This document shows, piece by piece, positions 8,381 through 48,497 of a stretch of 48,497 bases of DNA. The translations under genes were made by a program, and so were the position numbers. Below the pieces are notes generated by a model. It saw only the letters and a list, made by a program, of their open reading frames with translations, was not told where the DNA came from and made no database searches. Each line of letters begins with the position of its first letter. Within the stretch, counting starts at the first letter, position 1. This DNA is from Candidatus Bathyarchaeia archaeon (lineage in GTDB: Archaea; Thermoproteota; Bathyarchaeia; Bathyarchaeales; Bathycorpusculaceae): the NCBI GenBank assembly GCA_038883715.1, contig JAVZLS010000012.1, positions 1-48,497 of the forward strand, written 5' to 3'.

Positions 8381-8603
8381 AGCTAAACATACCCCACACT
8401 AACCAAAAGCTTGAAAACTGGATGTTGCCTGCATAGTTTCCAGCAAACATTACTGTCCACTGCCAGAGTTAGGCTACATGCAAATGAAAACTGAACCATA
8501 TTAACTTTTTGCATGAAATCCACAAGACTTTTAAGACCACGAGAAACCCTTGTTTCTTGAAACTTGTAAGTTATTTGAAAGTCCAGCGTCCGGGGATTCT
8601 GTC

Positions 8604-10814
8604 TTGCCAAGGTTTAGGCAAACCAGCGAAATTCTCAAGCTTATGCATAGAAAGGAGGATATCCGCAACATTGGCATAATAGCCCACATAGACCATGGAA
8701 AAACAACTATGACGGATTCTCTTTTGGCTGAGGCTGGCTTACTTTCGCCCAGAATAGCCGGAGAGGCCCGGGCTTTGGACTATTTGGAGGAGGAACAGAA
8801 GCGTGGAATTACAATTAAGACGGCTAATATTTCGCTTTTGCATGAGATTGGCGGACGCCCATACGTCATAAACTTGGTTGATACGCCGGGGCATGTGGAC
8901 TTTACTGGTAAGGTTACGAGGGCTTTGAGGGCCATTGACGGTGCAGTGGTTGTCGTGGATGCTGTGGAGGAGGTTATGGTTCAAACAGAGACCGTGACGA
9001 GGCAAGCCTTAGAAGAGAGGGTTCGCCCAGTTCTATTCATTAACAAGGTTGACCGCTTAGTAAAGGAGTTAAGGCTTACCCAAAGCGAGATTCAGGACAA
9101 GTTTACGCGGATTATCAGAGACTTCAACAACCTAATAGAGCTTTATGGAGAGCCAGACTTCAAGGAAAAGTGGAAGGTTGACCCTCAAAAGGAGACGGTG
9201 GCTTTTGGTTCTGCGTTGCACCGTTGGGGCTTTACACTAAAAATTGCACAGGAGAAGAACATCAAAATCAGCGACGTAATGGAGGCTTACATGCGAGGCG
9301 AACACCAAAAACTTGCACAGCTGATTCCGCTTCATAACGCCATTCTAGACATGGTGGTGAAAAACATTCCAAACCCCATAGAAGCCCAAAGGTATAGGCT
9401 GCCCAAAATATGGAAAGGCGACTTAACGTCTGAAATTGGGCAAGCCATGCTGAACTGCGACGACAACGGACCAACAGTCATGTGCATAACAATGGCGCAA
9501 ATGGACCCCCACGCTGGTTTGGTGGCAACTGGAAGGCTTTTCTCAGGTTCTGTTAAGGAGGGGGACCAGGTTTATCTGGTGGGTGCGCGCAAAGACTACC
9601 GCGTTCAGCAGGTTTCCATGTATATGGGCGCCTTCAGAGAAGTCGTTGACAAGATAGCGGCTGGGAATATTGCGGCGCTTTTGGGATTGGATTTGGCTAG
9701 GGCTGGGGAAACCCTTGTGGATTTAGCCCACAAAGACGTCATGGTTTCCTTTGAACGTATAAAGTATGTTTCAGAACCCGTCATAACAATTGCCATTGAA
9801 CCAAAACACCCAAAGGATTTGCCGCGTCTAGTGGACGCCATGAACAGACTCTCCATTGAAGACCCAAACCTTATAACCACCATAAACAGGGAAACGGGCG
9901 AGTATTTGCTGAGCGGAATGGGCGAGCTTCACCTCGAAATTGCCGTGAAATTCCTTCGGGATTATGGCGGCGGACTGGAAATCATAACCTCAACGCCAAT
10001 AGTGGTTTACCGGGAAAGCGTTGTCGGCAGAGGCGTAGTAGCCATGGCCAAAAGCCCCAACAAACACAACAGGTTCTGGGTTCAAGTTGAACCGCTGGAG
10101 GAGAGGGTTATAAACCTAATAGAGGCTGGTGAAATAGCCGAAGAAATGGGGAGAAAACAGATTGGAAACATACTCTTCAAGGAGGCTGGATGGCCAGCCG
10201 AGGAGGCGCGAAACATTCTGGCTATAGACGAGCACCGTAACATACTCATAGACGCGACAAAAGGCGTCCAATACCTAGGAGAAGCTAGAGAAATGATTAT
10301 TGCCGGTTTTAGGTGGGCTTGCAGGGCTGGACCACTGTGCGAGGAACCCATCCGAGGAGTGAAAGTCAAGCTTATGGACGCCCAACTCCACGAGGATCCA
10401 GTTCACCGCGGACCAGCACAAATTATGCCAGCCATTCGCCGTGCAATCTTAGGCTCTTTTTTGACGGCTAAACCAGTGCTTCTGGAACCCGTTTATAAGA
10501 TTGGAGTTTCTGTTCCAGCTCAATGGGTTGGGGATTGCATAAGCATAATAACCCGGAAAAGGGGGAAAATACTGGCTTCGGAGCAGAGGGGCATCCTAAC
10601 GATGATTGCTGGTTATATTCCAGTGGCTGAAACCTTTGGATTGTCGGCTGAGATGCGCTCAGCCACTTCTGGGCATGCTTTTTGGCAATGCACTTTCGAC
10701 CATTGGGAAAGGGTTCCAGAAAACATAGCCTCAGAAGTTGTTAGGCGAATACGCGAAAGAAAGGGGCTATCACCAGAAAAGCCGACGCCGGACATGTTCA
10801 TAGACGAAGAATAA
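8604..10814 (+). CDS. fusA: Translation elongation factor 2 (canonical type)
   Basis: AHIDHGKTT, EEEQKRGITI, DTPGHVDF, NKVD, diphthamide loop HEDPVHRGPAQI. TTG at 8604 (MPRFRQ...) chosen because it aligns with the paralogue's MGRYRQ. Confidence 0.93.
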   Translation: MPRFRQTSEILKLMHRKEDIRNIGIIAHIDHGKTTMTDSLLAEAGLLSPRIAGEARALDYLEEEQKRGITIKTANISLLHEIGGRPYVINLVDTPGHVDFTGKVTRALRAIDGAVVVVDAVEEVMVQTETVTRQALEERVRPVLFINKVDRLVKELRLTQSEIQDKFTRIIRDFNNLIELYGEPDFKEKWKVDPQKETVAFGSALHRWGFTLKIAQEKNIKISDVMEAYMRGEHQKLAQLIPLHNAILDMVVKNIPNPIEAQRYRLPKIWKGDLTSEIGQAMLNCDDNGPTVMCITMAQMDPHAGLVATGRLFSGSVKEGDQVYLVGARKDYRVQQVSMYMGAFREVVDKIAAGNIAALLGLDLARAGETLVDLAHKDVMVSFERIKYVSEPVITIAIEPKHPKDLPRLVDAMNRLSIEDPNLITTINRETGEYLLSGMGELHLEIAVKFLRDYGGGLEIITSTPIVVYRESVVGRGVVAMAKSPNKHNRFWVQVEPLEERVINLIEAGEIAEEMGRKQIGNILFKEAGWPAEEARNILAIDEHRNILIDATKGVQYLGEAREMIIAGFRWACRAGPLCEEPIRGVKVKLMDAQLHEDPVHRGPAQIMPAIRRAILGSFLTAKPVLLEPVYKIGVSVPAQWVGDCISIITRKRGKILASEQRGILTMIAGYIPVAETFGLSAEMRSATSGHAFWQCTFDHWERVPENIASEVVRRIRERKGLSPEKPTPDMFIDEE

Positions 10815-36446: not shown

Positions 36447-36638
36447 TGCGACGACCATCCGCGAGAGACCAATGTCAATCTTGGAGATTAGCCTTTTCGT
36501 TCGGCGAGGACGTCCTCTATAACTGTAGCCGTATTTAATGTTTTGGAGTCTGAAAGGTTGATAGATACCTTAATATATTAACTTCATAGGTTATTTAATT
36601 CTCATTAGAAGTAATTGAGGTTTGGAGGAAAGGTTGCA

Positions 36639-38501
36639 TTGTACGGCTATGCTGGAAGAATTCTCCACGTGGACTTAACAACTGGAAAAACACACACGGA
36701 GCCATTAAACGAGGATTATGCCAAAAAATACATTGGCGGCATAGGCCTAGGGATGCGCTTGTGGCTTGACAATTCTAAGGCTGGAGTTGACCCCTTCAGC
36801 CCAGAAAACCCGCTTGTCCTCGCGACAGGCCCAACTTCTGGCACCATTTGGCCAACTGGCGGTAATGGCCACGCCTTTGTTTCCAAGTCTCCGCAGAGTT
36901 ATGGCATAGCTGAAGCGAAGTCCCATGGAAGTTTCGGCACAGAACTGAAGAGGGCTGGTTACGACGCTGTTATTTTCCATGGAAAAGCTGAAAAGCCCGT
37001 CTATGTTTGGATTGACGACGACTCTGTACAAATTTTGGATGCTTCTCACTTGTGGGGTAAATCGCCGGCTGAAACTGAGGATATGATTAAGGAGGAGCTG
37101 GGTGACTACTACATCCGCGTTGCAGCTATTGGTCCTGCTGGAGAAAAACTTGTACGGATAGCATGCATAATCAACGAGAAGTCAAGAGCTGCTGGCAGAT
37201 GCGGACTTGGCGCCGTTATGGGTTCAAAGAATTTGAAGGCAATCGCCATCCGCGGAACCCACGACGTAACGGTGGCGAAGCCAGACGAGTTCCTTGAATT
37301 CGTTAAGGAGTTCCATGAGAGGATGAAGGGCCCAGCCACAAAGAAGTACCGAACACTGGGCACACCGGAAAATGTTTTGGTGCATAATGCTTTGCATTGT
37401 ATGCCAACTCGGAACTATAATAATGCACATTTTGAGGCTGCTGAGAAGGTTAGCGGCGAATACTTGAACGAGAGGTATGTTGCCAAAATCATTGGCTGCA
37501 GCTCCTGCGCCATGAGATGCGAACACGTGTGTGTTGTCACTGAAGGCCCCTACAAGGGGGCTATGGCTAGAGTTGAATACGAGCCTTTGTGGGCTATGGG
37601 ACCCTACTGTGGAGTTGACCGCCTAGACGCCATTATTAAGGGTAGCGAGCTCTGTAACTATTATGGAATAGACTCCATCAGTGCTGGTGTGATTGTTGGT
37701 TTCGCCATGGACTGCTTTGAAAACGGCATATTAACTGCTAAAGACATGGACGGCATTGAAGCCCGCTTCGGCAACCATGAAGCATTAGTGAGGCTTATTG
37801 AGAAAATTGGCAAACGTGAGGGGATAGGCAACATTCTGGCTGAGGGTGTCAAGTTCGCCGCTGAGAAAATTGGCAAAGGCGCCGAGAAACTAGCCCAACA
37901 CATAAAGGGTGTTGAGGTTACTGGTTACGACTTAAGATGCCTCAAAACGGCGGCTTTGGGCTTCGCTGTTTCCTTCCGTGGAGCTGACCACAACAGGCAT
38001 GGAGCCTACGCCTTCGACGTTAAGGGCAAGTTTAACAGGCTGAAGTACGAGAAGGGAAGGGCGAAAGCTGTGAAAGACATCGAAGACGTCTACACAATAA
38101 TTGACTCGCTGATAATCTGCAAGTTCTCCAGAGGCACATACTACAAGGAGTTTGAGGACTTGGCTAAGCTTTACACTCTTGTGACTGGTTGGGAGACAAC
38201 GCCTGAAGAGATGCGTGTGAAGGGCGAACGCATAAACAACCTCGCCAGAGTCATAAACGTGAGGGAAGGCTTAGGCCGGAAAGACGACACGCTTCCATGG
38301 AAGGTTATGAATGCGCCAATTCCAGACGAGGGTCCGTCTAAGGGTGCCTATGTGACGCAGGAGGAACTTGAAATGATGTTGGACGACTACTACGAGGCGC
38401 GGGGCTGGACAAGGGATGGCATACCAACTCCTGAGAAGCTTAAGGCTTTGGGCATGGACGACCTAATCCCGATTGTGGAGGCGAAGCTCCGAAAAGCCTA
38501 G
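36639..38501 (+). CDS. aor: Tungsten aldehyde:ferredoxin oxidoreductase family protein
   Basis: YGYAGRILHVDL, GAVMGSKNLKAI, CSSCAMRC, EYE, GIDSISAG, DSLIICKF, YYEARGW; likely TTG at 36639 after GGAGG. Confidence 0.92.
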   Translation: MYGYAGRILHVDLTTGKTHTEPLNEDYAKKYIGGIGLGMRLWLDNSKAGVDPFSPENPLVLATGPTSGTIWPTGGNGHAFVSKSPQSYGIAEAKSHGSFGTELKRAGYDAVIFHGKAEKPVYVWIDDDSVQILDASHLWGKSPAETEDMIKEELGDYYIRVAAIGPAGEKLVRIACIINEKSRAAGRCGLGAVMGSKNLKAIAIRGTHDVTVAKPDEFLEFVKEFHERMKGPATKKYRTLGTPENVLVHNALHCMPTRNYNNAHFEAAEKVSGEYLNERYVAKIIGCSSCAMRCEHVCVVTEGPYKGAMARVEYEPLWAMGPYCGVDRLDAIIKGSELCNYYGIDSISAGVIVGFAMDCFENGILTAKDMDGIEARFGNHEALVRLIEKIGKREGIGNILAEGVKFAAEKIGKGAEKLAQHIKGVEVTGYDLRCLKTAALGFAVSFRGADHNRHGAYAFDVKGKFNRLKYEKGRAKAVKDIEDVYTIIDSLIICKFSRGTYYKEFEDLAKLYTLVTGWETTPEEMRVKGERINNLARVINVREGLGRKDDTLPWKVMNAPIPDEGPSKGAYVTQEELEMMLDDYYEARGWTRDGIPTPEKLKALGMDDLIPIVEAKLRKA

Positions 38502-38520
38502 CAGAATGGAGGTATGGTGA

Positions 38521-39030
38521 ATGGTTAAGATTCATGAGAGAAAATTTGTTTCAGCCGATCCTGACAAGTGTGTTGGCTGCCAGGTCTGCGAGTACATTTG
38601 CGCTTGGACCAAGGAGAAGGCTTTCAACCCGTTAAAGTCACGGATACGGGTTGTTAGGCTTAACCCGCTGGTGAACATTTCTATTACTTGTAGACTTTGT
38701 GAGGACCCGCCTTGTGTTGCCGCTTGCCCAAGGGACGCCTTAACCCAGTCTGAGGAGAATGGCACAATAATCGTGGATGAGGATAAGTGCAATGGCTGCG
38801 GATGGTGCATTGAGGCTTGCGATTATGGGGCGGTTTCGCTTCATCCTGAGAAAAAGGTGGTTTTTATCTGCGACTTGTGCAAGGACAAGCCTGACGGGCC
38901 CCAGTGTGTTAAGTGGTGTCCAGAGGAAGCCTTAGACCTTGTCACGGCTGATGTTTTGGCTCAGAAAGCCCGTATAACTGCTACTAAGAAGCTTTTCCAA
39001 GAAGCCTTGAAAGTGGCTCCGCCGGCTTAA
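38521..39030 (+). CDS. 4x[4Fe-4S] ferredoxin-like subunit (AOR partner)
   Basis: CVGCQVCEYIC, CRLCEDPPCVAACP, CNGCGWCIEAC, CDLC..PQCVKWCP. Confidence 0.92.
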   Translation: MVKIHERKFVSADPDKCVGCQVCEYICAWTKEKAFNPLKSRIRVVRLNPLVNISITCRLCEDPPCVAACPRDALTQSEENGTIIVDEDKCNGCGWCIEACDYGAVSLHPEKKVVFICDLCKDKPDGPQCVKWCPEEALDLVTADVLAQKARITATKKLFQEALKVAPPA

Positions 39031-39151
39031 ACCATCCACCCTTTTTATTCTTTTATGGTTTTCCCTTCGGGGTTATTGAAGGGTTAGTCTTATTAGTGGC
39101 TTTGTTATTATTTTGTATTGTCTGATTTGGATTCTGAGCTTGTGGTTTGCT

Positions 39152-39433
39152 ATGGCGGGGTATGGAGGGGGAAGGCGTAGGCGGAGTCGGGTTGAGGTTA
39201 TCATTGAGATTTTGAGTGAGGCTTTGAATGGTGCTAATAAGACTAGGCTTATGTATCGTTGTAATTTGAATTTTGGGCGTTTTAACCGTTATTTGAAGGA
39301 GTTGTTAGACGCCGGCTTGCTGGAGCAAGTGGCTACCAATCCGGAGACGGGACTGATTTTGTACAGGACTACTGCTAAGGGGCGGGAGCTTCTAAAAATT
39401 TTGGAGATGGCTGGCGAGTTTCTTTCCGTTTAG
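39152..39433 (+). CDS. Archaeal winged-helix transcription regulator
   Basis: RRSRVEVIIEIL, KTRLMYRCNLN, YLKELLDAGLL, YRTTAKGRELL. Confidence 0.88.
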   Translation: MAGYGGGRRRRSRVEVIIEILSEALNGANKTRLMYRCNLNFGRFNRYLKELLDAGLLEQVATNPETGLILYRTTAKGRELLKILEMAGEFLSV

Positions 39434-39439
39434 CCTATT

Positions 39440-39850
39440 TTAGTGAATTTTGTTTATTGCTATTTCGTTTAGTTTTTTGTTTATTCGGATTTCTAGTTCT
39501 AGGCTTGTGTCTGTTAGGTTTGTTATGCGGGTGCATTGGATTATTAGGGATTTTTGGGGTGGGATTATTATGGTGCCTATGGCTGTGGCTGCTGGTGCGG
39601 TTTCTTGCTGTGTCTGTGCTTGTGCTGTGTTTGGTGTTTCTTTTTGGTTTATTATTAGGGTTTTCCAGTTTTGGTTTAGTTTTATCTGGTTTGTTGTGGG
39701 GTTGTGTTGTATCATGTCTGCCTCTGTTAGGAACTCCACTATTTTTTGGGCTTTTTCTGGTGGAATTTGGAGGGTTTCCGCGACTTCTTTTATGTTGTGC
39801 CATAAGTTGTCGTCAAGTAGGGCTAACAGTTTTTCCAGTTTTGTTGACAA
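39440..39850 (-). CDS. Winged-helix protein with a small C-terminal beta domain
   Basis: LLALLDDNLWHNIKEVAETLQIPPEKAQKIVEFLTEADMI HTH pattern; divergent from the fibre operon. Confidence 0.7.
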   Translation of the reverse strand: MSTKLEKLLALLDDNLWHNIKEVAETLQIPPEKAQKIVEFLTEADMIQHNPTTNQIKLNQNWKTLIINQKETPNTAQAQTQQETAPAATAIGTIIIPPQKSLIIQCTRITNLTDTSLELEIRINKKLNEIAINKIH

Positions 39851-40144: not shown

Positions 40145-40819
40145 ATGGATAAGAAAGTAATGGCAACGTTTGCATTGTTGATTGTGGCTTTGAGTGTTAT
40201 AGGATTTGCGTATGCCCATTGGAGTGGTCAACTTTATATTGAAGGCACCGTGAATATGGGTGAGCTTATCTTTGGATTTACAACATGCGGACCGTGCGGC
40301 GATGGCAAGATGGTGGATGGTAGAATTGTGACGCCGGAACCCAAAGACATTGGAGAAATCACTTGTAATCTGTTGGAACCTGAAACAAGTGTGCATTTGC
40401 CACAGCCAAAGACTGTGTATAAGAAGTTGAACATCACTATTACTAAGGCTTATCCGGAGTACGTAGCCTGGTGCAATTTCACACTTGACAACGGCGGAAC
40501 CATACCATTAGACGTGTACATGTACTGCGTGACAGTAAACACTGGCGATGGGCTTAGGTGGCACTGGAAATGGGTCGATGGATTGGGATGGATGATAGAA
40601 GGTTTCAAGGATTTAAATGAGAACGGTGAATGGGACGAAGGCGAACCAATTCTGATCAACATTTGGTTTGAGCCGATGTTCTTTGGACAAATTGACCCAT
40701 GCGAATCGAAGAACAGTAGAATATACATTCACATCAAAGAGCCAGCGGAACCATGCCACACCTACAAGTTCGAAATAAGCATCACAGCCTATCAGTGGAA
40801 CTGGGAAAATCTCGATTAA
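40145..40819 (+). CDS. Secreted TasA/CalY-like fibre subunit 1 with SipW-type signal peptide
   Basis: MDKK-hydrophobic-GFAYA|HWSGQLYIEGTVNMG; ITKAYPEY..FTLDNGGTIP; IHIKEPAEPCHTYKFEISI; no TM anchor. Confidence 0.75.
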   Translation: MDKKVMATFALLIVALSVIGFAYAHWSGQLYIEGTVNMGELIFGFTTCGPCGDGKMVDGRIVTPEPKDIGEITCNLLEPETSVHLPQPKTVYKKLNITITKAYPEYVAWCNFTLDNGGTIPLDVYMYCVTVNTGDGLRWHWKWVDGLGWMIEGFKDLNENGEWDEGEPILINIWFEPMFFGQIDPCESKNSRIYIHIKEPAEPCHTYKFEISITAYQWNWENLD

Positions 40820-40833
40820 GGAGGATGATTGAT

Positions 40834-41481
40834 ATGCATGCAAGTAAAAAGTTGATTGCCTTACCGCTTCTCTTTGCAATAGCACTATCCATAGCTGGCT
40901 TCGCATACGCTACTTGGTCGGACAAAATTTACATTAACGGAAGGATTGAAATGTGCGGCTTTAGTGTAGGCTTTGATTATGCGGAAACACCGTCTCCAGT
41001 TGAAAAGTACTGGGACAAGACGCTAAAACAATGGATGCCAGGCGAAGCAGAAGGAAAAGACGTCGGGAAAGTGGCTGCCTATTATGATCCTGAATCCCTG
41101 TACATAGACAAGCACACAGGAAAACAGGGATACAAAAAGATGATTGTCGAATTAACTAACGCATATCCATGCTACGCAGCCTTCGTCACCTTCAAAATAA
41201 ACAACACAGGACAATTAGCAGTTGACGTAACTGGCTACACAGTATCCGACCCAACAGGAACTCTCACCTTCACATACAACGCAGCTTCGGGGTGGTGGGA
41301 AGGAAGAGACGCTGACGGAAAACTGGTGTTAACCGTTAGAGTGGTAAACAATATTCCATTCCAGCTTGACGCTTGCCACGCTGAAAAGATGGAGATAGAC
41401 ATCCACGTAGAACAGAACGCATTAGAGTGCCACACCTACAAGTTCAGCGTTACCATAAACTACGAACAATACGACCCATAA
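40834..41481 (+). CDS. Secreted TasA/CalY-like fibre subunit 2
   Basis: AGGAGG then ATG 40834; GFAYA|TWSDKIYINGRIEM; LTNAYPCY..FKINNTG; IHVEQNALECHTYKFSVTI. Confidence 0.75.
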   Translation: MHASKKLIALPLLFAIALSIAGFAYATWSDKIYINGRIEMCGFSVGFDYAETPSPVEKYWDKTLKQWMPGEAEGKDVGKVAAYYDPESLYIDKHTGKQGYKKMIVELTNAYPCYAAFVTFKINNTGQLAVDVTGYTVSDPTGTLTFTYNAASGWWEGRDADGKLVLTVRVVNNIPFQLDACHAEKMEIDIHVEQNALECHTYKFSVTINYEQYDP

Positions 41482-41511
41482 TCAAACGAAAACAGCACCA
41501 GCAATAACAAA

Positions 41512-41530
41512 CCTCCCCCATTTTTTGGGA
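41512..41530 (+). terminator. Candidate intra-operon terminator after subunit 2
   Basis: CCTCCCCCATTTTTTGGGA pyrimidine/T6 tract in the 83-bp gap before the peptidase. Confidence 0.4.
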
Positions 41531-41564
41531 ATTCAAAGTCTAAAATAAATTAGGAAAATAGAAT

Positions 41565-42887
41565 ATGTCCCGTAACACGATAACAGTATTAACCGTGCTC
41601 TTATCAGTATTCATAATTCTAAACATATACCAACCGGGCGGATTGACGGCTTATATTCTCCCATCCATCTGCTGGGCAACTGTAGCCATAACCACGTTAT
41701 ACATGTGCCGTTTTGAAAAAATCCGTTCATGGACAAATAAGCGGATAACCTTCATGGCACTGCTTGTGGCATTCTTTCAAATATTCATATTTATAGATGC
41801 TGGGCTAATAAACAGATTTGGAAGAAGCCCGTTACTATTTACACCAAGCGCACTAGCCTTAAACCTAACACTGGTAACGACAACCCTTCTTGGAATAGAA
41901 CTGTCAAGGGGATACCTAACAAAAAACCTAAACAACAGAAAACCGACACTAACGCTTTTAGCCATAACACTCTTGTACACCTTCATGAGCATATCCATAC
42001 TCGCCCTAATCAATTTCCAAGACCCCCTAGCTTGTACAAAATTCATAGGAGAAACCTTCCTACCGACCCTTGCTGAAAACCTATTAGCCACATACCTAGC
42101 CCTATTAAGCGGACCAGTGGCATCCCTAGCCTACCGAATACCACTACAAGCATTCTGGTGGTTCTCCCCAATCCTACCAGACCTCCCATGGGGCTACAAA
42201 TCCCTAATAGGCGTAATGACACCAACAATAGGCTTTATAGCCATAAACATGGCGACAAACCATAGAGACCTAAGAAAGGCAGGAATACCAAAACAGAGAA
42301 AACTAACAATAGAAAAGATAAAAAGCCGAAAATCCATCAAAGGCTGGCTAGCCATATCCGTTTTCCTCGTCCTAGCCGTCTGGACATCAACAGGCTTATT
42401 GGGTTTCACGCCCACAATAATCGCCAGCGGAAGCATGCAGCCAACGCTTAATCCAGGCGACATAGCCATAGTTATATCCACACCACCAAAAGCCATCCGA
42501 GTAGGCGACATAATCCAGTACAGAACTGCCCAAAGCCAAGAGCCAACCGTCCACCGCGTCATAGACAAATACGAGGCTGGAGGCATAACATGGTTCATAA
42601 CCCAAGGCGACGCCAACAACGCCCCAGACAACCCGATAAGCGAACAACAAGTGGTTGGCAAAGTAATATTTACAATCCCAAAGCTGGGCTGGGTAAGCAT
42701 ATACCTAAAAGAGTGCGCCGCCAACGCCTACAATTTCCTAACGGTAACGCTTCCAAAAGCCCTGACAGAAGGCGGCAAATTCATATTGACAAACAGCATC
42801 CCAATAACAGCCGCCCTAACCCTAACCGCATACACTTACCTCTTACTCACATATCATAAAACAACAAGAAAGGAGGAAAAAACATGA
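41565..42887 (+). CDS. sipW: SipW/Sec11-type signal peptidase I fused to an N-terminal multi-TM domain
   Basis: IASGSMQPTLNPGD (Ser), VGDIIQY, TVHRV (His), TQGDANNAPD, VVGKVIFTIPKLGW, preceded by about 280 aa of hydrophobic helices. Confidence 0.85.
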   Translation: MSRNTITVLTVLLSVFIILNIYQPGGLTAYILPSICWATVAITTLYMCRFEKIRSWTNKRITFMALLVAFFQIFIFIDAGLINRFGRSPLLFTPSALALNLTLVTTTLLGIELSRGYLTKNLNNRKPTLTLLAITLLYTFMSISILALINFQDPLACTKFIGETFLPTLAENLLATYLALLSGPVASLAYRIPLQAFWWFSPILPDLPWGYKSLIGVMTPTIGFIAINMATNHRDLRKAGIPKQRKLTIEKIKSRKSIKGWLAISVFLVLAVWTSTGLLGFTPTIIASGSMQPTLNPGDIAIVISTPPKAIRVGDIIQYRTAQSQEPTVHRVIDKYEAGGITWFITQGDANNAPDNPISEQQVVGKVIFTIPKLGWVSIYLKECAANAYNFLTVTLPKALTEGGKFILTNSIPITAALTLTAYTYLLLTYHKTTRKEEKT

Positions 42888-43765
42888 AAAAATTGCTAAC
42901 AGCGCTAGCCCTAACAATATTGACGCTAATGGTAATAAGTTACAGTTACGCATGCTTGAACGGCGGAATCCAAATAAACTGCTACTGCAACTGCGACGTC
43001 AAATTCACAAAAGTAACAACAAGCGACAACGAAATAGAAAAAAATGTAGCCACAACAACAGCCATAATAGAAGGATGCGACGCCGACACGATAAAAGTTT
43101 ACATAACAAACGGCTACCCATGCTATGAGGCTTACATAAACTACACAATCAAAAATGTAGGCTCCAGACCCGTACATTTTGACGGCCTAACAATAATAAA
43201 CCCAAACCCAGAAGCCCTAGAAATAACAACAACAAACCACACATGCATATGGCTTTCACCATGCGAAAAAATAAGCGGACTAACAAGAGTTCACATCCTT
43301 CAAACAGCAGAAGAATGCCATACATACACCTTCAAAATAAAAATAGGCTTAACATGCCAAAAATACTATCCACGCACAATAGGCTTCTGGAAAAACCAAT
43401 TCGACAAAGCCCTATCCAAAGCAGGCAAACCACAAATAGACCTAGACAGCCTTGAAAGCTTCCTAGACCAAATAAGCGCCCAATCACCAATCTACGAGTT
43501 CACAGGCACACGCAGAGAAAAATTCCAACAGGCTCTAAATATCCTCAGCCCGCCATGGTACTCAAACATGGAAGCAAAACTCAAAGCTCAACTTTTGGCG
43601 TTGTGGCTAAACTACGTGGCAGGGTGGACTGAAGGCTACACGTACAAAGGCATGACAGCATGGCAAATAATTCAAGGCTCAGAAAACGCCCTACTGAACA
43701 AGCAAACCTGGCGCTACGAATACTGGAAAAACATGTGCGACGGATTTAACAACCTAGGAGGATGA
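42884..43765 (+). CDS. Secreted minor subunit: TasA-like domain plus C-terminal helical domain
   Basis: SYSYA signal; ITNGYPCYEAYINYTIKNVG; VHILQTAEECHTYTFKI; then RTIGFWKN..AQLLALWLN..DGFNN; ATGA overlap with the peptidase. Confidence 0.72.
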   Translation: MKKLLTALALTILTLMVISYSYACLNGGIQINCYCNCDVKFTKVTTSDNEIEKNVATTTAIIEGCDADTIKVYITNGYPCYEAYINYTIKNVGSRPVHFDGLTIINPNPEALEITTTNHTCIWLSPCEKISGLTRVHILQTAEECHTYTFKIKIGLTCQKYYPRTIGFWKNQFDKALSKAGKPQIDLDSLESFLDQISAQSPIYEFTGTRREKFQQALNILSPPWYSNMEAKLKAQLLALWLNYVAGWTEGYTYKGMTAWQIIQGSENALLNKQTWRYEYWKNMCDGFNNLGG

Positions 43766-44520
43766 AGGAAATGAAAAGGTATAGGAGAAAAACTTCAATC
43801 AATAAAGCAGTAAGCCTTTGCTCCCTAACATTGCTGGTCGCCCTGGCAATAGTAGGCTACAGCTACTCCCACTGGACAGAAAACATCCACATACAAGGAA
43901 CAATAACAACAGCCAAACAAAAAATCGCAAGCGTCCGCATAATGAAAACCCTAAACGGCTCCTTCACAAACCCATACACAGGAAACGACACATCAACACC
44001 AACAAACCTAATCCACGTTGGAACTGAAACGAGTCCAGGATGGCCAACAAAATTCCAGTTAATAATCACCGTGGAAAACAATGGCACAGTGCCAATAACC
44101 GACGCCGTATTCGACGTAATTGAAAACACTGTTGAACCAATAAACGCCACACCTAGCAAAGGCACAATAGAATGGTACTACAACCACACCACAGGCGGCG
44201 AATACGTCCAAAACTTCCTAAAATGGACCATTGGAACACTAGCACCAAATGAAGTGGCAACGCTTGAAATATGGATACAAACCCTACGCAACCCCTCAGG
44301 AAAATACGAACCCACAAGCGAAAACCAACCCCTCGAAATCAACAGAGGCGCCAACATAACAGCCACCTCAGAATTAGGAAATCTCTTTGCACAAACAGGA
44401 AACATAACTCTCATAATCGTAGACGATGGCATTCCAGACAACAATCTAGCGGTAATAACACCATCATTGCCATATTCCACTCCATGGGCAAGCGATGCAA
44501 TAAAAGAATACACGCCTTAA
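43762..44520 (+). CDS. Secreted minor subunit with SipW-type N-terminus and DUF11/Ig-like body
   Basis: GYSYS|HWTENIHIQGTITTA; IITVENNG..VFDVI; LKWTIGTLAPNEVATLEI; ATGA overlap. Confidence 0.7.
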   Translation: MKEMKRYRRKTSINKAVSLCSLTLLVALAIVGYSYSHWTENIHIQGTITTAKQKIASVRIMKTLNGSFTNPYTGNDTSTPTNLIHVGTETSPGWPTKFQLIITVENNGTVPITDAVFDVIENTVEPINATPSKGTIEWYYNHTTGGEYVQNFLKWTIGTLAPNEVATLEIWIQTLRNPSGKYEPTSENQPLEINRGANITATSELGNLFAQTGNITLIIVDDGIPDNNLAVITPSLPYSTPWASDAIKEYTP

Positions 44521-44668
44521 AACACACAATCACCCTTACGACAAACCGTTTTTTAAAATCTCAATTTAGAGTATGCGTGCTAATACCAATTTTTAAACCT
44601 AAAAACTAGAGGGGGGCTATCAATTTTGCAGTTCGACACTAACAACAAAATTGACAATCTACAGCCTC

Positions 44669-45160
44669 TCATGAGAGGACAGCCAACAAAACCTCCACAA
44701 TTTTCTGCGCTGCAGCCTCAACCTCCCCAGACAAGCCTTCCCCAAAATCCGTTTCTTTAGGCTCTATCAATAACAAAGCTATTTTTGCGCCTAACATTGT
44801 GGCAAGATATTCACAGAAAACCCGAAGGGGAAGCATATGCGTCGAAATAGCCGGAAAAACTCGAAGGTGCTCGGGCTTAACAAGCCTACACTCGCCGGGC
44901 TCCAAACCCATGACGGCGGCGTCGATAAGCAGCACATGTGAAGGCTTAAAGTCAGCTATTTCCTGAAGATAACTTTCAGGAACAGTTTCACACTCAATCA
45001 GCAAAACCTTGTCAGAAACTTTCCCTTGCAAGTCGCGGACAACTTTCACGCCGACAAAATCATCCATACGGATAGGGCTGCCAATACCAGCAACAACAAC
45101 CCTCACAGCGCCGGAAAACCAATCCCTCAACTTCTTCTCAAAAGAACTTTCCAACGACAA
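44669..45160 (-). CDS. hycI: [NiFe]-hydrogenase maturation endopeptidase (HycI-like)
   Basis: GIGSPIRMDDFVG, ETVPE, IDAA, STH; downstream of mvhA. Confidence 0.9.
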   Translation of the reverse strand: MSLESSFEKKLRDWFSGAVRVVVAGIGSPIRMDDFVGVKVVRDLQGKVSDKVLLIECETVPESYLQEIADFKPSHVLLIDAAVMGLEPGECRLVKPEHLRVFPAISTHMLPLRVFCEYLATMLGAKIALLLIEPKETDFGEGLSGEVEAAAQKIVEVLLAVLS

Positions 45161-45201
45161 AAGCTCTTCTCCAAAAATAGAAAGGAAGGGAAGTTAAGGC
45201 T

Positions 45202-46656
45202 TTACCTCTGCACCGTCTTAACGAGTTTCCCTTCACTGTCGTAGATTTCCACAGTCAATGGCAATTGCCCAACAGCAAAGTGGGTGGCGCAACCAAAACA
45301 TGGGTCATAAGCCCTAAAAGCCATCTCCACCATGTTAAGCAATCCCTGATCAACTTTGCCTCCTTGAATCAAGCCCTTAGCCGCGTTCCTAACCGACATA
45401 TTAATTGAAGGAGCATTATTAACAGTAGCCACAATCAGGTTGACATCCTTGATTAAGGCGTTCTCATCCAAGACGTAATGGTGAATCAACGTGCCCCTAG
45501 CAGCCTCAACAACGCCGACGCCCTCGCCGGGTTTGCCAGGCTTATTCCTCACATTGGTGCTTGTTATTTCGGGGTCTTTAACAAGCTCAACAGCCCTTTC
45601 AGCCGCGTACAGAAGTTCGATGAGCCTAGCCCAATGGTAAGCTAAAGTGGAGTGCACTGGTTTTCCGCCTAACGTCTTATACATGAGCTCATATTCCTCT
45701 TGGGCTAACGGCGTAGCCATGCCATCAGCAGCATTAAGCCTCCCCAAAGGACCAACACGGTAAATGCCACTACCAGGACCGTCAACAAAGCCCTTCCAGC
45801 CAACCTTCCTTAAGTACGGCTGCTTCACATAGGTCCATGGCTCCACCCGTTCGGCTATGTGCTCCAAATAATCCTTAGCCTCAAACTTTGCAAACTCCTT
45901 GCTGTTCGGGTCTACAACCCGTATTTTTCCGTCGTAAAAGTTCACCTTGTTATGCTCATCTACCAGACCCATATAATAGGTGCGCAGCGTGTAGGCGTCG
46001 CTCTTAATCAGCTCCACATACTTGGTGTTCTTCAAAACAATGTCATGGAAAAGCTTCAAAGAAAACCTTGCAAAATCAACAGCTGAAGTAACCATCTTTT
46101 CAATTTCTTGGCGGTTATCCTCGCTTAAAGGCTTAGATACCCCGCCCGGCAGCCCACAGACCGGATGAGTGGCTTTTCCACCAATCAGCTCCACTATCCT
46201 CTGACCATAAGCCCTATGCTTAATAACCTCCTTGGCAACGTCCAAGCCAGCCTTCTCAATAACCCCCAAAATATTGCGCTTTTCGGGCGGCGCGTTCGGA
46301 CCAACAACAAAGTCTGGACCGCCCAAATAATAGAAGTGTAGTGTGTGGTCGTAAATGTAGTAGCCACAATACATGAGTTCACGAAGCTTTTTAGCTGCTG
46401 ACGGTGGCTCCACATTAAAGGCAGCATCCAAAGCCTTTGTCCCAGCCATATGATGCGCAACCGGACAGACACCGCAGATTCTGCTTGTCAAAAGAGGCAT
46501 GTCCTCGGCCTTCCTCCCAATACAGAACCTTTCAAAACCGCGCAGTTCCGGGATTTGTAGGTAGGCGTTTTCCACCTCGCCAGCGTCGTTTAGGAATATG
46601 GCTATTTTCCCGTGACCTTCAAGCCTTGTTATTGGGTCAATTATTATCTCTTTCAT
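45202..46656 (-). CDS. mvhA: Group 3c [NiFe]-hydrogenase large subunit
   Basis: IDPITRLEGH, RICGVC (L1), RAYDPCFGCATH (L2) with a cleavable C-terminal extension. Confidence 0.92.
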   Translation of the reverse strand: MKEIIIDPITRLEGHGKIAIFLNDAGEVENAYLQIPELRGFERFCIGRKAEDMPLLTSRICGVCPVAHHMAGTKALDAAFNVEPPSAAKKLRELMYCGYYIYDHTLHFYYLGGPDFVVGPNAPPEKRNILGVIEKAGLDVAKEVIKHRAYGQRIVELIGGKATHPVCGLPGGVSKPLSEDNRQEIEKMVTSAVDFARFSLKLFHDIVLKNTKYVELIKSDAYTLRTYYMGLVDEHNKVNFYDGKIRVVDPNSKEFAKFEAKDYLEHIAERVEPWTYVKQPYLRKVGWKGFVDGPGSGIYRVGPLGRLNAADGMATPLAQEEYELMYKTLGGKPVHSTLAYHWARLIELLYAAERAVELVKDPEITSTNVRNKPGKPGEGVGVVEAARGTLIHHYVLDENALIKDVNLIVATVNNAPSINMSVRNAAKGLIQGGKVDQGLLNMVEMAFRAYDPCFGCATHFAVGQLPLTVEIYDSEGKLVKTVQR

Positions 46657-47636
46657 TTGCGAATCACCTTCCTCCGCAAAATTGAAGCTGGCAAACCATA
46701 CATGTAGAAGGTTCCAACAGGGTCCTTAATCTGGTCTATAAGCTTTTCAACCTCCTCCTCAGTGTATTTCTCCTTCTCCTCCTCCAAGCCAAGAATCGAA
46801 GCCAAAGCGCTAATCATGGCAGCGCCTTGCTCCGGAGCATTTGGACATGGACCGCCACAGCCGGTGCAGGGCATATCAGCCTTCAAGCATCTGGCGCTAC
46901 AACCGCCTCTTGTGGCTGGTCCCATGCATATAATGCCCTGCTCCAGTAGGCACCTTTCCGTGTCTAGAACCTTCTCGTAGACACGGTATATCCTCGATAT
47001 CTTCTTATTCTCCTTCTTTTTTGGACACTCGTCGCAAACAGACTTTAAAGGCGCCAAAACAGAGCCTTTTGGCGGCAGCTCGCCCTTGGCTATGGCTTCT
47101 AAGGCGAATATTGTGCGCTCCACTGCCGGCGGACAGCCAGGCACGTAATAGTCAACATCCACTGTTTGGTCTAGGGTTCGCACGGTGTCATAGAACTTTG
47201 GAATTTCTAGCTCGCCTTCTTTAACATGCACTTTCGGCTGTGGAAAAACTTTGTTGGGGTTGTCTGTTGAAAATGTTTTGGCGTAAACTTGCTCGAAGAT
47301 TTCCTCTTTATTATGGAGGTTAGCCAGCCCGGGAACGCCGCCGAGATGGGCACAAGCACCATAAGCCACAAGAATCTTTGACTTCTGCCTTAAAAGTTTA
47401 GCCATATACTCTTGTTCGCTGTTTCGGATTCCACCATTAAAGAAGCAAACATCAATGTATTTGTCTGGCATGGCTTCAACATCTTTATACTTTATATCCA
47501 TGGCAACAGGCCAAAACACAATGTCCGCGATTTGCACCACATCCAAAATTTTTTCGTTGATGTCTAAGACGGCGATTTCGCAGCCGCCACAACTTGCCGC
47601 CCAGTAAAAGGCGAACTTCAATTTTTGTTTCGCCAT
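46653..47636 (-). CDS. mvhG: [NiFe]-hydrogenase small subunit
   Basis: ASCGGC, GACA..GG, PGCPP, VCDEC, CLLEQGIICMGPATRGGC..C..PCTGC. Confidence 0.92.
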   Translation of the reverse strand: MAKQKLKFAFYWAASCGGCEIAVLDINEKILDVVQIADIVFWPVAMDIKYKDVEAMPDKYIDVCFFNGGIRNSEQEYMAKLLRQKSKILVAYGACAHLGGVPGLANLHNKEEIFEQVYAKTFSTDNPNKVFPQPKVHVKEGELEIPKFYDTVRTLDQTVDVDYYVPGCPPAVERTIFALEAIAKGELPPKGSVLAPLKSVCDECPKKKENKKISRIYRVYEKVLDTERCLLEQGIICMGPATRGGCSARCLKADMPCTGCGGPCPNAPEQGAAMISALASILGLEEEKEKYTEEEVEKLIDQIKDPVGTFYMYGLPASILRRKVIRK

Positions 47637-47649
47637 ATTCGTATCCCAC

Positions 47650-48497
47650 CTACTTAATTTGGCTCAATAATTCTGTTGGTTTTACCCTAAGCTCGTTTAG
47701 GGCTAGCTCTTCAGGTGAAAAGCCCATGGCTAATCCCAATAGCTGTGGGTAGTGGAGGACTGGCAAATTGAATTTTTCGTTGAAGGCTCTCTCTATGCGG
47801 GGCTGGTTTAGGTCGAACATTATGTGACAGAAGGGACAAACAGTAATAAGTGCCTGAGCGCCCACAGCCCTCACGTGGTCAAGTTTCTCTTTAGCCATTT
47901 GGAAGGGCACATCCTCATTTACGCCTATTATCGGGTTTCCGCAGCACTCAGTCTCATCCATATAGTCTAGGCATTCGGCGCCTGTCAGTCTAATCAACTC
48001 TTTAAGGGTTGTTGGGTTTTCTGGGTCGTCCCGTCCCACATATTTGCGGGGTCTTAAAACGTGGCACCCGCTGTGTTGAGCTACACGGATACCAACCAGA
48101 GGCTTTTTGACGGCATTCTTTATCTTCTCGTAGCCAACGTCCTCTGAAAGCACGTAGATTAGGTGTTTAACTTCTATTGTGCCCTTAAACTCCATGCCAA
48201 CCTCTTTTAAATAGCCGTTAATCTTCTCCCGGAGCTTCTTGTCCTCTTTTAGGATTTTGTTGGTTTCATTTAGGCTGCAGAAGCACCCGTTGCACAGCGT
48301 CATTATAGGTAAGCCCACCTTTTCCGCTATGCAGAGGTTTCTCGCCGCCAAAGTCAACATCAGATCGTGGTTTATAACGTCCATTGGGTAGCCGCAGCAG
48401 TTGTATTCTGGCATTTCAACAATTTCAACGCCAAGTTTTGCGAGAACTTTCCTGGCGGAAATTTCGTAGCTTGAAAGCCTATAGGGGATTACACAGC
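47650..48497 (-). CDS. hdrB: Heterodisulfide reductase subunit B (5' end runs off the window)
   Basis: Frame open to the right edge: CVIPY..YNCCG..LCNGC and HSGCH..ECCG..VCPFC, PVLHYPQLLGLAMG. Confidence 0.92.
   Translation of the reverse strand, partial: CVIPYRLSSYEISARKVLAKLGVEIVEMPEYNCCGYPMDVINHDLMLTLAARNLCIAEKVGLPIMTLCNGCFCSLNETNKILKEDKKLREKINGYLKEVGMEFKGTIEVKHLIYVLSEDVGYEKIKNAVKKPLVGIRVAQHSGCHVLRPRKYVGRDDPENPTTLKELIRLTGAECLDYMDETECCGNPIIGVNEDVPFQMAKEKLDHVRAVGAQALITVCPFCHIMFDLNQPRIERAFNEKFNLPVLHYPQLLGLAMGFSPEELALNELRVKPTELLSQIK

Follow-up and report, generated by a model that had tools for sequence, protein, structure and literature searches.

The window analyzed here is a whole contig of 48,497 nucleotides (JAVZLS010000012.1, assembly GCA_038883715.1) from a Candidatus Bathyarchaeia archaeon. 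Judged from its sequence, the locus at positions 40145-44520 is a donor-strand pilus operon of the AbpX/TasA type, with genes for two pilins (S1 and S2), a SipW-like signal peptidase, and two additional secreted proteins named M3 and M4. The list of open reading frames (ORFs) in the window gives five same-strand (+) genes in the order S1, S2, a 440-amino-acid membrane protein, M3, and M4. From the homologies, motif losses, gene pairing, and monomer models described below, which were observed directly, we infer the binding steps, the lack of a groove in M4, a usable groove in M3, and the polarity of the fiber relative to the cell. Sequence comparisons, structural models, and analogy to other fibers lead us to favor, with a probability that we place slightly short of an even chance, an arrangement in which M4 is a donor-only end-piece, M3 is an acceptor-only end-piece, and the two occupy opposite ends of the fiber. 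An earlier reading of the DNA letters (hereafter the sequence-only reading) had likewise proposed that the two minor subunits are complementary caps for opposite filament ends.

In the mechanism that we favor, exported pilins would be cut by the dedicated membrane signal peptidase behind a [YF]-[AS]-Y-[AS] motif. This cut would free an N-terminal strand of the pattern x-W-x-x-x-I-x-I-x-G-x-V, and the strand would complete the beta sandwich of the subunit next in line. The shaft would be built from S1 and S2, each able to give and receive a strand. M4, or a protein called M4b in other loci, would give its strand only. In a role like that of TapA toward TasA, it would occupy the exposed groove of the first pilin and start or cap that end. 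The pilin-type body of M3 would accept the strand left free on the last pilin, such that M3 ends the fiber and places its conserved helical head there. Because the M3 strand lacks the Trp clamp and the hinge Gly, nothing could be added behind it. In such a polar polymer, M4 would therefore close the end with an exposed groove, and M3 the end with an unpaired strand.

The relationship of the locus to known fibers is drawn from profile comparisons. A profile of the pilin family, built from 31 S-type sequences, matches AbpX of Pyrodictium abyssi (9sj2) with an E value of 5.1e-6 in a search against PDB sequences, and the M3-family profile matches the same protein with an E value of 5.4e-4, whereas single sequences reach only about 0.05-0.08 against AbpX. 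No Pfam family is matched by S1 or M3, and none of S1, S2, M3, and M4 matches PF12389 at E ≤ 1. The latter model is named as the TasA/camelysin family in the available text of PMC9245690, and we therefore place the four proteins only in the wider superfamily, through AbpX. The sequence-only reading had argued within the frame of a donor-strand polymer, and this frame is borne out by the AbpX matches of both profiles and by a dedicated multi-pass peptidase like that of AbpX loci.

Both pilins carry a canonical donor strand. S1 (40145..40819, + strand) has the mature N-terminus HWSGQLYIEGTV and 33 homologues, and S2 (40834..41481, + strand, with a start at either 40825 or 40834) has the mature N-terminus TWSDKIYINGRI and is 34% identical to S1. 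With cleavage after A-Y-A, S1, S2, and M4 all begin x-W. According to the available text of the preprint that describes it, AbpX polymerizes by an N-terminal donor strand extending from W2 to I12, in which W2 is the clamp and position 4 is a calcium site (10.64898/2026.01.04.697558). W2 is present in 31/31 aligned pilin homologues and in all 68 pilins of related loci, for which we classified 95 loci (15 genome contigs and 80 metagenome contigs) with profiles of the four families. G10 is found in 62 of these 68 pilins. At position 4, D is found in 26 of the 31 close homologues, and the wider loci have K, E, or D (28, 25, and 13 of 68, respectively), while S1 itself has G instead of the AbpX acid.

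Two pilin genes precede the peptidase gene in all 34 related loci that have at least 1500 nucleotides visible upstream. When the pilin genes are placed in a tree, those in first and those in second position do not separate cleanly (three changes are needed for each), and thus the tree does not back a fixed division of S1 and S2 into major and minor subunits. We consider both to be putative donor-strand shaft subunits that would be able to give as well as receive a strand.

M4 appears to join a donor strand of this kind to a different body. The gene ends at 44520 on the + strand and encodes 252 amino acids if read from 43762 or 249 amino acids if read from 43771. The second start is more likely, because GGAGG lies 8 nucleotides upstream of the ATG at 43771 but abuts the ATG at 43762, and because the database cluster containing M4 has a length of 249 amino acids. 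The 4-base overlap of M3 and M4 is therefore doubtful. From the preferred start, a signal peptide (43771..43869) ends in YSYS, after which the mature protein reads HWTENIHIQGTIT. Its first segment is the strand HWTENIHIQGTI (43870..43905), which has the pilin-like pattern and is nearly identical to the pilin strands given above. Position 2 is W in 31 of 33 homologues and in 22 of 26 loci, position 4 is D or E in 21 of the 33 homologues, and G10 is present in every case (33/33 homologues and 26/26 loci). When the pilin profile is searched against the genome that carries the window, its match in M4 is confined to 43822-43920, which corresponds to the signal peptide and strand. Likewise, the hhalign match of M4 to the pilins (98.2%) derives mainly from this part.

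Beyond the strand, the body of M4 (43906..44520) is an all-beta, DUF11-type immunoglobulin (Ig)-like sandwich as judged by Pfam and by modeling. DUF11 (PF01345) matches residues 96-185 with an E value of 1.6e-6 (28.9 bits compared to a cut-off of 24.6), and this family is also precomputed on many M4 homologues. The AlphaFold2 model has a mean predicted local distance difference test (pLDDT) score of 89, with residues 1-16 unstructured (pLDDT 59-77) and the remainder all-beta. In a structure search independent of Foldseek, the best match to the body is the type V tip pilin Mfa5 (6to1; Z 13.3, root-mean-square deviation 3.8 Å, 139 residues aligned), followed at Z 8-10 by Gram-positive tip and shaft pilins, MSCRAMM adhesins, and macroglobulin domains. 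The domains matched are complete Ig-like domains. Foldseek searches of the PDB with the M3 and M4 models gave weak generic beta-sandwich matches only. The M4 model suggests a self-sufficient body, which may lack an acceptor groove, and the combined features fit a donor-only end-piece that could act as a TapA-like initiator or cap.

In many related loci, the place of M4 is taken by M4b, a shorter protein of about 175-200 amino acids with a different body, in which W2 is present in 38 of 39 cases. M4 itself has seven N-x-S/T sites, and the signal peptide is the sole hydrophobic segment in both M3 and M4. Separately, a C-terminal motif, LPYSTPWA (44467-44490), is almost invariant in the M4 family and is modeled as a strand of the body.

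M3 (42884..43765, + strand, 293 amino acids) is probably a receive-only end-piece, as its sequence combines a pilin-type body with what looks like a disabled donor strand. By alignment, its signal peptide (42884..42952) ends in SYSYA and the mature protein reads CLNGGIQINCYCNC, the cleavage site being assigned from the A-x-A rule and from the W at position 2 in pilins, as in AbpX. The N-terminal tail, CLNGGIQINCYCNCD (42953..42997), has cysteines at positions 1, 10, 12, and 14, and position counts mark it as a Cys-rich and degenerate version of the donor strand, with which it can be aligned. Positions 6 and 8 are still hydrophobic, but W2, the position-4 acid, and G10 are missing. Within the M3 family, position 2 is aromatic in 11 of 30 aligned sequences and is W in only 14 of 79 loci, compared to 68/68 for pilins. 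Position 4 is acidic in none of the 30 and is G in 26 of them (and in 77 of 79 loci), whereas position 10 is C in 27 of 30 sequences and 68 of 79 loci where pilins have G in 62 of 68. In two near-identical loci (L084 and L085), the tail is shortened (C-R-T-T-C-Y-T-N-C...) and the NGGIxI core is missing. The M3 ORFs of these same two loci overlap the preceding M4b gene.

The beta body of M3 (42998..43366, mature residues 16-138), which we presume to be the acceptor domain, is homologous to the pilins. An hhalign comparison of the M3 and pilin families, with signal-peptide columns included, gives 99.7% and an E value of 8.4e-26, and the alignment extends from YP.Y to the last strand. M3 has both YPCY and ECHTY. 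In the M3 model (mean pLDDT 89.2), residues 1-11 score below 50, residues 16-135 form eight strands, and residues 143-266 form six helices with pLDDT values of 86-99. These helices constitute the C-terminal head (43367..43762), which runs from PRTIGFWKNQ to KAQLLALWLN. Neither M3 nor M4 is modeled as self-complemented through its N-terminus, and we take the homology of the M3 body to suggest that it might offer a usable acceptor groove.

M3 is also the most conserved component of the operon. Across eight loci, identity to the window is 57-78% for M3, 40-67% for the peptidase, 38-84% for M4, and 25-38% (long alignments) for the pilins, such that the shaft pilins diverge far faster than M3 in the same loci. 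The distribution of the M3 family is patchy, with representatives in 3 of 201 sampled genomes of the class, including the genome analyzed here. Two cysteines are invariant in 30/30 M3 sequences, one at mature position 135 at the end of the beta body (about 43355) and one at position 262 near the end of the head (about 43736). These residues may form a disulfide that joins the two domains.

Much of what the sequence-only reading described for the two minor proteins holds. Both ORFs are genuine and conserved, with 221 homologues for M3 and 73 for M4 at E ≤ 1e-3. The helical domain that it noted in M3 from the TIGFWKN and QLLALWLN motifs corresponds to the six modeled helices, and its description of M4 as keeping the donor strand, lacking the YPxY and CHTY motifs, and having an Ig/DUF11-like body is correct, in that M4 shares only its signal peptide and strand with the pilins. 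Other statements need qualification. M3 was said to keep the shared body motifs, and indeed YP.Y is retained in its family (YPCY in 24 of 30), but CHTY is not a family feature, with ECHTY in 3 of 30 sequences and most others QNWQY-like. The mature N-terminus of M3 was contrasted with xWS..I.G, and three donor-strand residues (W2, the position-4 acid, and G10) are absent from it, but the tail is not unrelated to a donor strand given its alignment and its two hydrophobic positions. Finally, M4 was placed at 43762-44520, where there is a genuine gene whose start is more likely nine bases farther downstream.

If M3 and M4 serve complementary purposes, homologous operons might be expected to carry one minor subunit of each type, a check that the sequence-only reading had suggested. 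The outcome of this check is favorable, as exactly one donor-strand minor adjoins M3 in 74 of 77 evaluable loci. M4 directly follows M3 in 26 loci, M4b directly follows it in 11, and M4b directly precedes it in 37, while no locus has donor minors flanking M3 on both sides. A complex prediction for mature M3 with mature M4 gave ipSAE values of 0.00 and 0.00 (compared to a mark of 0.32), which speaks neither for nor against binding. In one of the related loci (L067:7810-10813), a second pilin-pilin-peptidase set lies about 1.2 kilobases 3′ of a complete operon with two pilin genes, peptidase, M3, and M4, and represents a tandem duplication of the locus.

The helical head of M3, which has no Pfam match at E ≤ 0.1, is a recurrent part of these fiber operons. 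All-against-all HMMER comparisons identified 68 representative proteins with homologous heads, 26 of which were scanned against Pfam. The longer proteins are bacterial multidomain surface proteins with SdrD_B, DUF11, VWA plus GBS104-like tip-pilin Ig, FG-GAP, or PKD domains, often with a type IX secretion tail, and in those inspected the head lies at or near the C-terminus. An ESM Atlas search with the head returned unnamed clusters only (best score 0.90). One archaeal example from the same class as the window is an 800-amino-acid secreted protein (L024:2020-4422, - strand, genome G030) that has a C-terminal head and no Pfam match at E ≤ 1e-5.

The short head proteins come from metagenome-assembled genomes of Desulfurococcales and from Aeropyrum camini. 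In these, the signal peptide is followed by a canonical donor strand (such as LWSEDLNISVGV or LWSEDLNISV...) and then directly by the head, with no beta body. Heads from this group (P0303 of A. camini, P0242, and the genes in loci L110 and L117) match the M3 head with phmmer E values of 1e-13 to 1e-20. In L110 and L117, the gene order is pilin, pilin, strand-plus-head protein, and multi-pass signal peptidase, and the second pilin of L110 is homologous to the pilins of the window (98.8%). A scan of genome contigs with an alignment yielded a confirmed locus, while a scan with the single A. camini protein confirmed none. A secreted A. camini protein composed of a donor strand and a head (P0240/P0303) is named "transcriptional regulator" in one source record, and this name looks wrong.

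Because such a head protein has a donor strand but neither a pilin body nor a groove, it could only give a strand and would sit where a groove is exposed. The Desulfurococcales head would thus be at the groove end, opposite to where we place the head of M3, and this is one of several observations that weigh against the opposite-end arrangement. Others concern the body and tail of M3 and the strength of the pairing. Fold searches with the M3 beta body returned generic Ig-like matches only, with Z ≤ 7.7, and neither AbpX nor TasA is among the 50 matches listed, a result that does not refute the fold link. The M3 tail is itself conserved, with a mean identity of 69%, C1 and G4 each in 77 of 79 loci, and hydrophobic residues at positions 6 and 8. 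This conservation implies that the tail has some function, and it might remain a specialized donor. Among the 95 loci, 17 are not evaluable and one has no M3 ORF, leaving the 77 counted above, and near-duplicate metagenome contigs (L050/L051, L074/L075, and L084/L085) make these counts non-independent. Three loci (L042, L083, and L099) have the peptidase and M3 followed by at least 700 nucleotides without a donor minor. In addition, all of the binding steps rest on inference.

The Desulfurococcales proteins also bear on the main alternative, in which both minor subunits lie at the same tip. In this arrangement, the strand of M4 or M4b would enter the groove of M3 and the Cys-rich tail of M3 would enter the first pilin (M4 into M3 into S...S), so that M4 exists to fill the M3 groove. 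The head would then be at one end in both lineages, since in L110 and L117 it directly follows a canonical donor strand and would mark the groove end. Furthermore, no M4-like gene is present between or just after the genes listed for these two loci, although the L110 contig stops 78 nucleotides past the peptidase gene and its absence there is not established. The adjacency of M3 to M4 or M4b in 74 of 77 loci agrees with the same arrangement, as does the selection acting on the tail, in which I6 and I8 are kept. However, a tail made for the usual pilin groove would be expected to retain the Trp clamp, a residue found in 68/68 pilins and in 38/39 M4b proteins but in only 14/79 M3 proteins. Moreover, the strand core of the tail is missing in L084 and L085. 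We consider placement at a single tip unlikely.

Somewhat less unlikely, in our view, is an evolutionary scenario that accommodates both lineages, in which the head module caps opposite ends of homologous fibers in different archaea. In Desulfurococcales, the head would occupy the groove end, attached to a donor strand without a body. In Bathyarchaeia, fusion of the head gene with the pilin gene beside it would have produced the receive-only M3, leaving the groove end bare, and a separate give-only M4 or M4b would then have been recruited. Such a history would explain the near-constant co-occurrence of M3 with a donor-only minor.

The claim of complementary end caps therefore stands in part. 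A donor-only M4 and an M3 that accepts but has a disabled donor strand fit it, but a donor-only protein in Desulfurococcales bears the same head, which leaves room for both minors at a single end. The identification of M3 as a tip adhesin, which the sequence-only reading had put forward, is doubtful. M3 is the most conserved component of the operon, while the body found in the place of M4 varies (M4 compared to M4b) and that of M4 resembles tip pilins and adhesins.

M3 might instead be an in-line minor pilin that both gives and receives, and that decorates the shaft with heads at intervals rather than capping it. Its pilin-like body, the alignment of its tail with the donor strand, and the survival of W2 in 14 of 79 loci would agree with this role. 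On the other hand, most family members lack W2, G10, and an acid at position 4, L084 and L085 have lost the core of the strand, and M3 is conserved far above the shaft pilins. These observations make an in-line position improbable.

M4 could also act only transiently, as a chaperone or nucleator whose strand is lent to new pilins or to M3 before M4 is displaced. The available text of PMC10151520 portrays TapA as a chaperone-like initiator at a ratio of about 1:100, and M4 has no membrane anchor once cleaved. The large, conserved, and sequon-rich body of M4 suits an exposed structural role, although nothing here separates a transient M4 from a stable cap, and we rate displacement as a slim chance. 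Lastly, M3 could be a separate surface protein that lies outside the fiber and owes its place in the operon to sharing the dedicated peptidase, in line with the presence of its head in many unrelated bacterial surface proteins and with the putative nature of its binding, but this is improbable given that its beta body is homologous to pilins, that no other gene of the operon is as conserved, and that an ATGA overlap couples it tightly to the peptidase gene.

The opposite-end arrangement that we continue to favor depends on a processing step for which the locus has its own enzyme. The signal peptidase I gene (41565..42887, + strand) encodes a protein of 440 amino acids that matches the NCBIfam model TIGR02228 with an E value of 5e-28 (97.9 bits compared to a cut-off of 51.85), with the SipW-like catalytic domain at residues about 264-387. 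Pfam Peptidase_S26 is matched as well, whereas the SipW model itself gives a weaker match that is below its own cut-off. All four secreted proteins (S1, S2, M3, and M4) have a signal peptide ending in [YF]-[AS]-Y-[AS], and because of this common motif one peptidase probably cuts all of them. A lipoprotein-type lipobox at the SYA-C junction of M3 was considered and then dropped in favor of this shared motif. A crude hydropathy scan found several hydrophobic segments in the long N-terminal part of the peptidase. This membrane domain of about 260 residues (41565-42350) matches no family, and the enzyme may have a role beyond proteolysis, for example as an assembly platform.

Additional features surround the operon. 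Runs of six T residues are evident by direct reading of the + strand at 41521..41526, 3′ of S2, and at 44549..44554, 3′ of M4. The first is a possible partial archaeal terminator between the pilin genes and the genes for the peptidase and minor subunits, and the second may serve as the terminator of the whole operon. Upstream lies a gene for a winged-helix protein of the HTH_45/Sso10a family (39113..39433, + strand; Pfam HTH_45 1.1e-19, NCBIfam Sso10a_fam 1e-20), whose product is a probable regulator or chromatin protein on the basis of these matches. A second small winged-helix-like protein is encoded beside the operon on the opposite strand (39440..39850, - strand), and has only weak matches below the Pfam cut-off (DUF4423 6.1e-4 and TrmB 0.012). 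Homologues of the first occur at the equivalent place in L010, L011, and L013, and homologues of the second occur in the same three loci with E values of 1e-59 to 1e-79.

A search of the genome (90% complete) with the pilin profile found a single pilin locus. The operon is flanked on one side by genes for aldehyde:ferredoxin oxidoreductase and a ferredoxin (36615-39030) and on the other by a [NiFe]-hydrogenase cluster with its maturation protease (44669-48414), and the hydrogenase side is syntenic in L006, L010, L011, and L013. A DUF5305 gene, whose product has been proposed to be a peptidase accessory, lies downstream of M3 in L010, and a look-alike gene is at the equivalent place in L006. 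The only DUF5305 gene of the genome analyzed here is outside the pilus operon, on another contig (C10:26309-26917, L018; E 7.8e-13). Elsewhere in the window, two EF-2/EF-G-type genes (6161-8380, - strand, and 8550-10814, + strand) are arranged divergently, back to back. Both are full-length, with products of 739 and 754 amino acids that have five domains each.

Transcripts from parts of the locus are represented in an RNA-Seq library from another study (X3). Its assembled contigs cover S1 and S2 only (40337-41274, with 0-4 differences per contig) and the region 44482-44693, and none of them covers the peptidase gene, M3, or most of M4, although such contigs indicate presence only and their gaps prove nothing. 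This coverage fits stronger transcription of the pilin genes. The raw RNA reads of run X4 contributed one read only.

Bathyarchaeia are an abundant, uncultured group about whose cell surfaces almost nothing is known. The locus predicts a complete and simple fiber kit, with two pilins for the shaft, an enzyme for processing, and a pair of end-pieces, that could be rebuilt in vitro. If the end-pieces indeed cap opposite ends, they would provide a handle on the start, stop, and length control of strand-swapped fibers that assemble without chaperones, questions that are still open for TasA, AbpA, the threads, and AbpX. The helical head, which has no name as yet, merits classification as a separate family. 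It is common to Desulfurococcales fiber loci and to many bacterial surface proteins.

In chaperone-usher pili, receive-only and give-only subunits lie at opposite ends, as exemplified by the tip adhesin FimH and the terminator PapH. The sequence-only reading drew this parallel, and its logic of polarity carries over, but the operon has no chaperone or usher genes. Moreover, the lectin domain of FimH is N-terminal, whereas the extra domain of M3 is C-terminal and helical.

Further comparisons come from other fibers. In TapA of Bacillus subtilis, the first residues are almost those of TasA and the Ig fold is already complete, such that the protein can only start a filament, according to the available text of PMC10151520. 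M4 would function in a similar way, as it has a major-subunit-like N-terminus on a different, apparently complete Ig-type body and is likewise encoded in an operon with a signal peptidase. However, the gene order of TapA (tapA-sipW-tasA) differs from that of the window, the body of M4 is of the DUF11 type, and M4 matched no TapA chain in PDB sequence searches at E ≤ 10. M4 is therefore an analogue of TapA rather than a member of its family. A second precedent is Saci_0405 of the Sulfolobus threads, a donor-strand minor subunit that, in the available text of PMC9715654, is proposed to be without an acceptor site and to cap one end, with the polarity left open by its authors. Saci_0405 has the fold of the major subunit and no Sec signal, whereas in M4 the body differs and the signal peptide is cleavable. 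The Tafi pili of haloarchaea are encoded by a TasA-superfamily locus that, as described in the available text of PMC12337348, includes a signal peptidase, DUF5305, a proposed tip protein (TafC), and a proposed anchor (TafF). Compared by description, TafF is said to be anchored through a membrane helix, unlike M3 and M4.

The AbpX loci of Thermoproteota resemble the operon through the sequence similarity of S1, S2, and M3, the W2 donor strand, a multi-pass peptidase, and the presence of DUF5305 in some related loci such as L010. The accessible portion of the AbpX preprint attributes ten membrane helices to the dedicated signal peptidase I, and states that the loci hold "AbpX-like minor subunits" and "predicted tip proteins" (10.64898/2026.01.04.697558). 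These tip proteins are named without description in the main text, and may or may not include the M3 and M4 families. The P. abyssi AbpX locus has the pilin and peptidase only, unlike the operon in the window. Bathyarchaeia are not mentioned in the preprint text as available (10.64898/2026.01.04.697558), and no paper among the matches listed in a full-text literature search combines Bathyarchaeia with these fibers.

Thus, end-pieces have already been proposed for relatives of this system, including TapA, AbpB, Saci_0405, TafC and TafF, and the tip and minor components of AbpX loci. The architecture of M3, in which a pilin body is combined with a disabled Cys-rich strand and a helical head, seems to be new, as does its near-obligate pairing with a donor-only minor. 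The strand-plus-head proteins of Desulfurococcales resemble M3 in their head and in their operon context of two pilins and a multi-pass peptidase, but they have no pilin body and would act as givers only. A third feature that seems new relative to the systems described previously is that, in another lineage, a head of the M3 type is attached directly to a donor strand.

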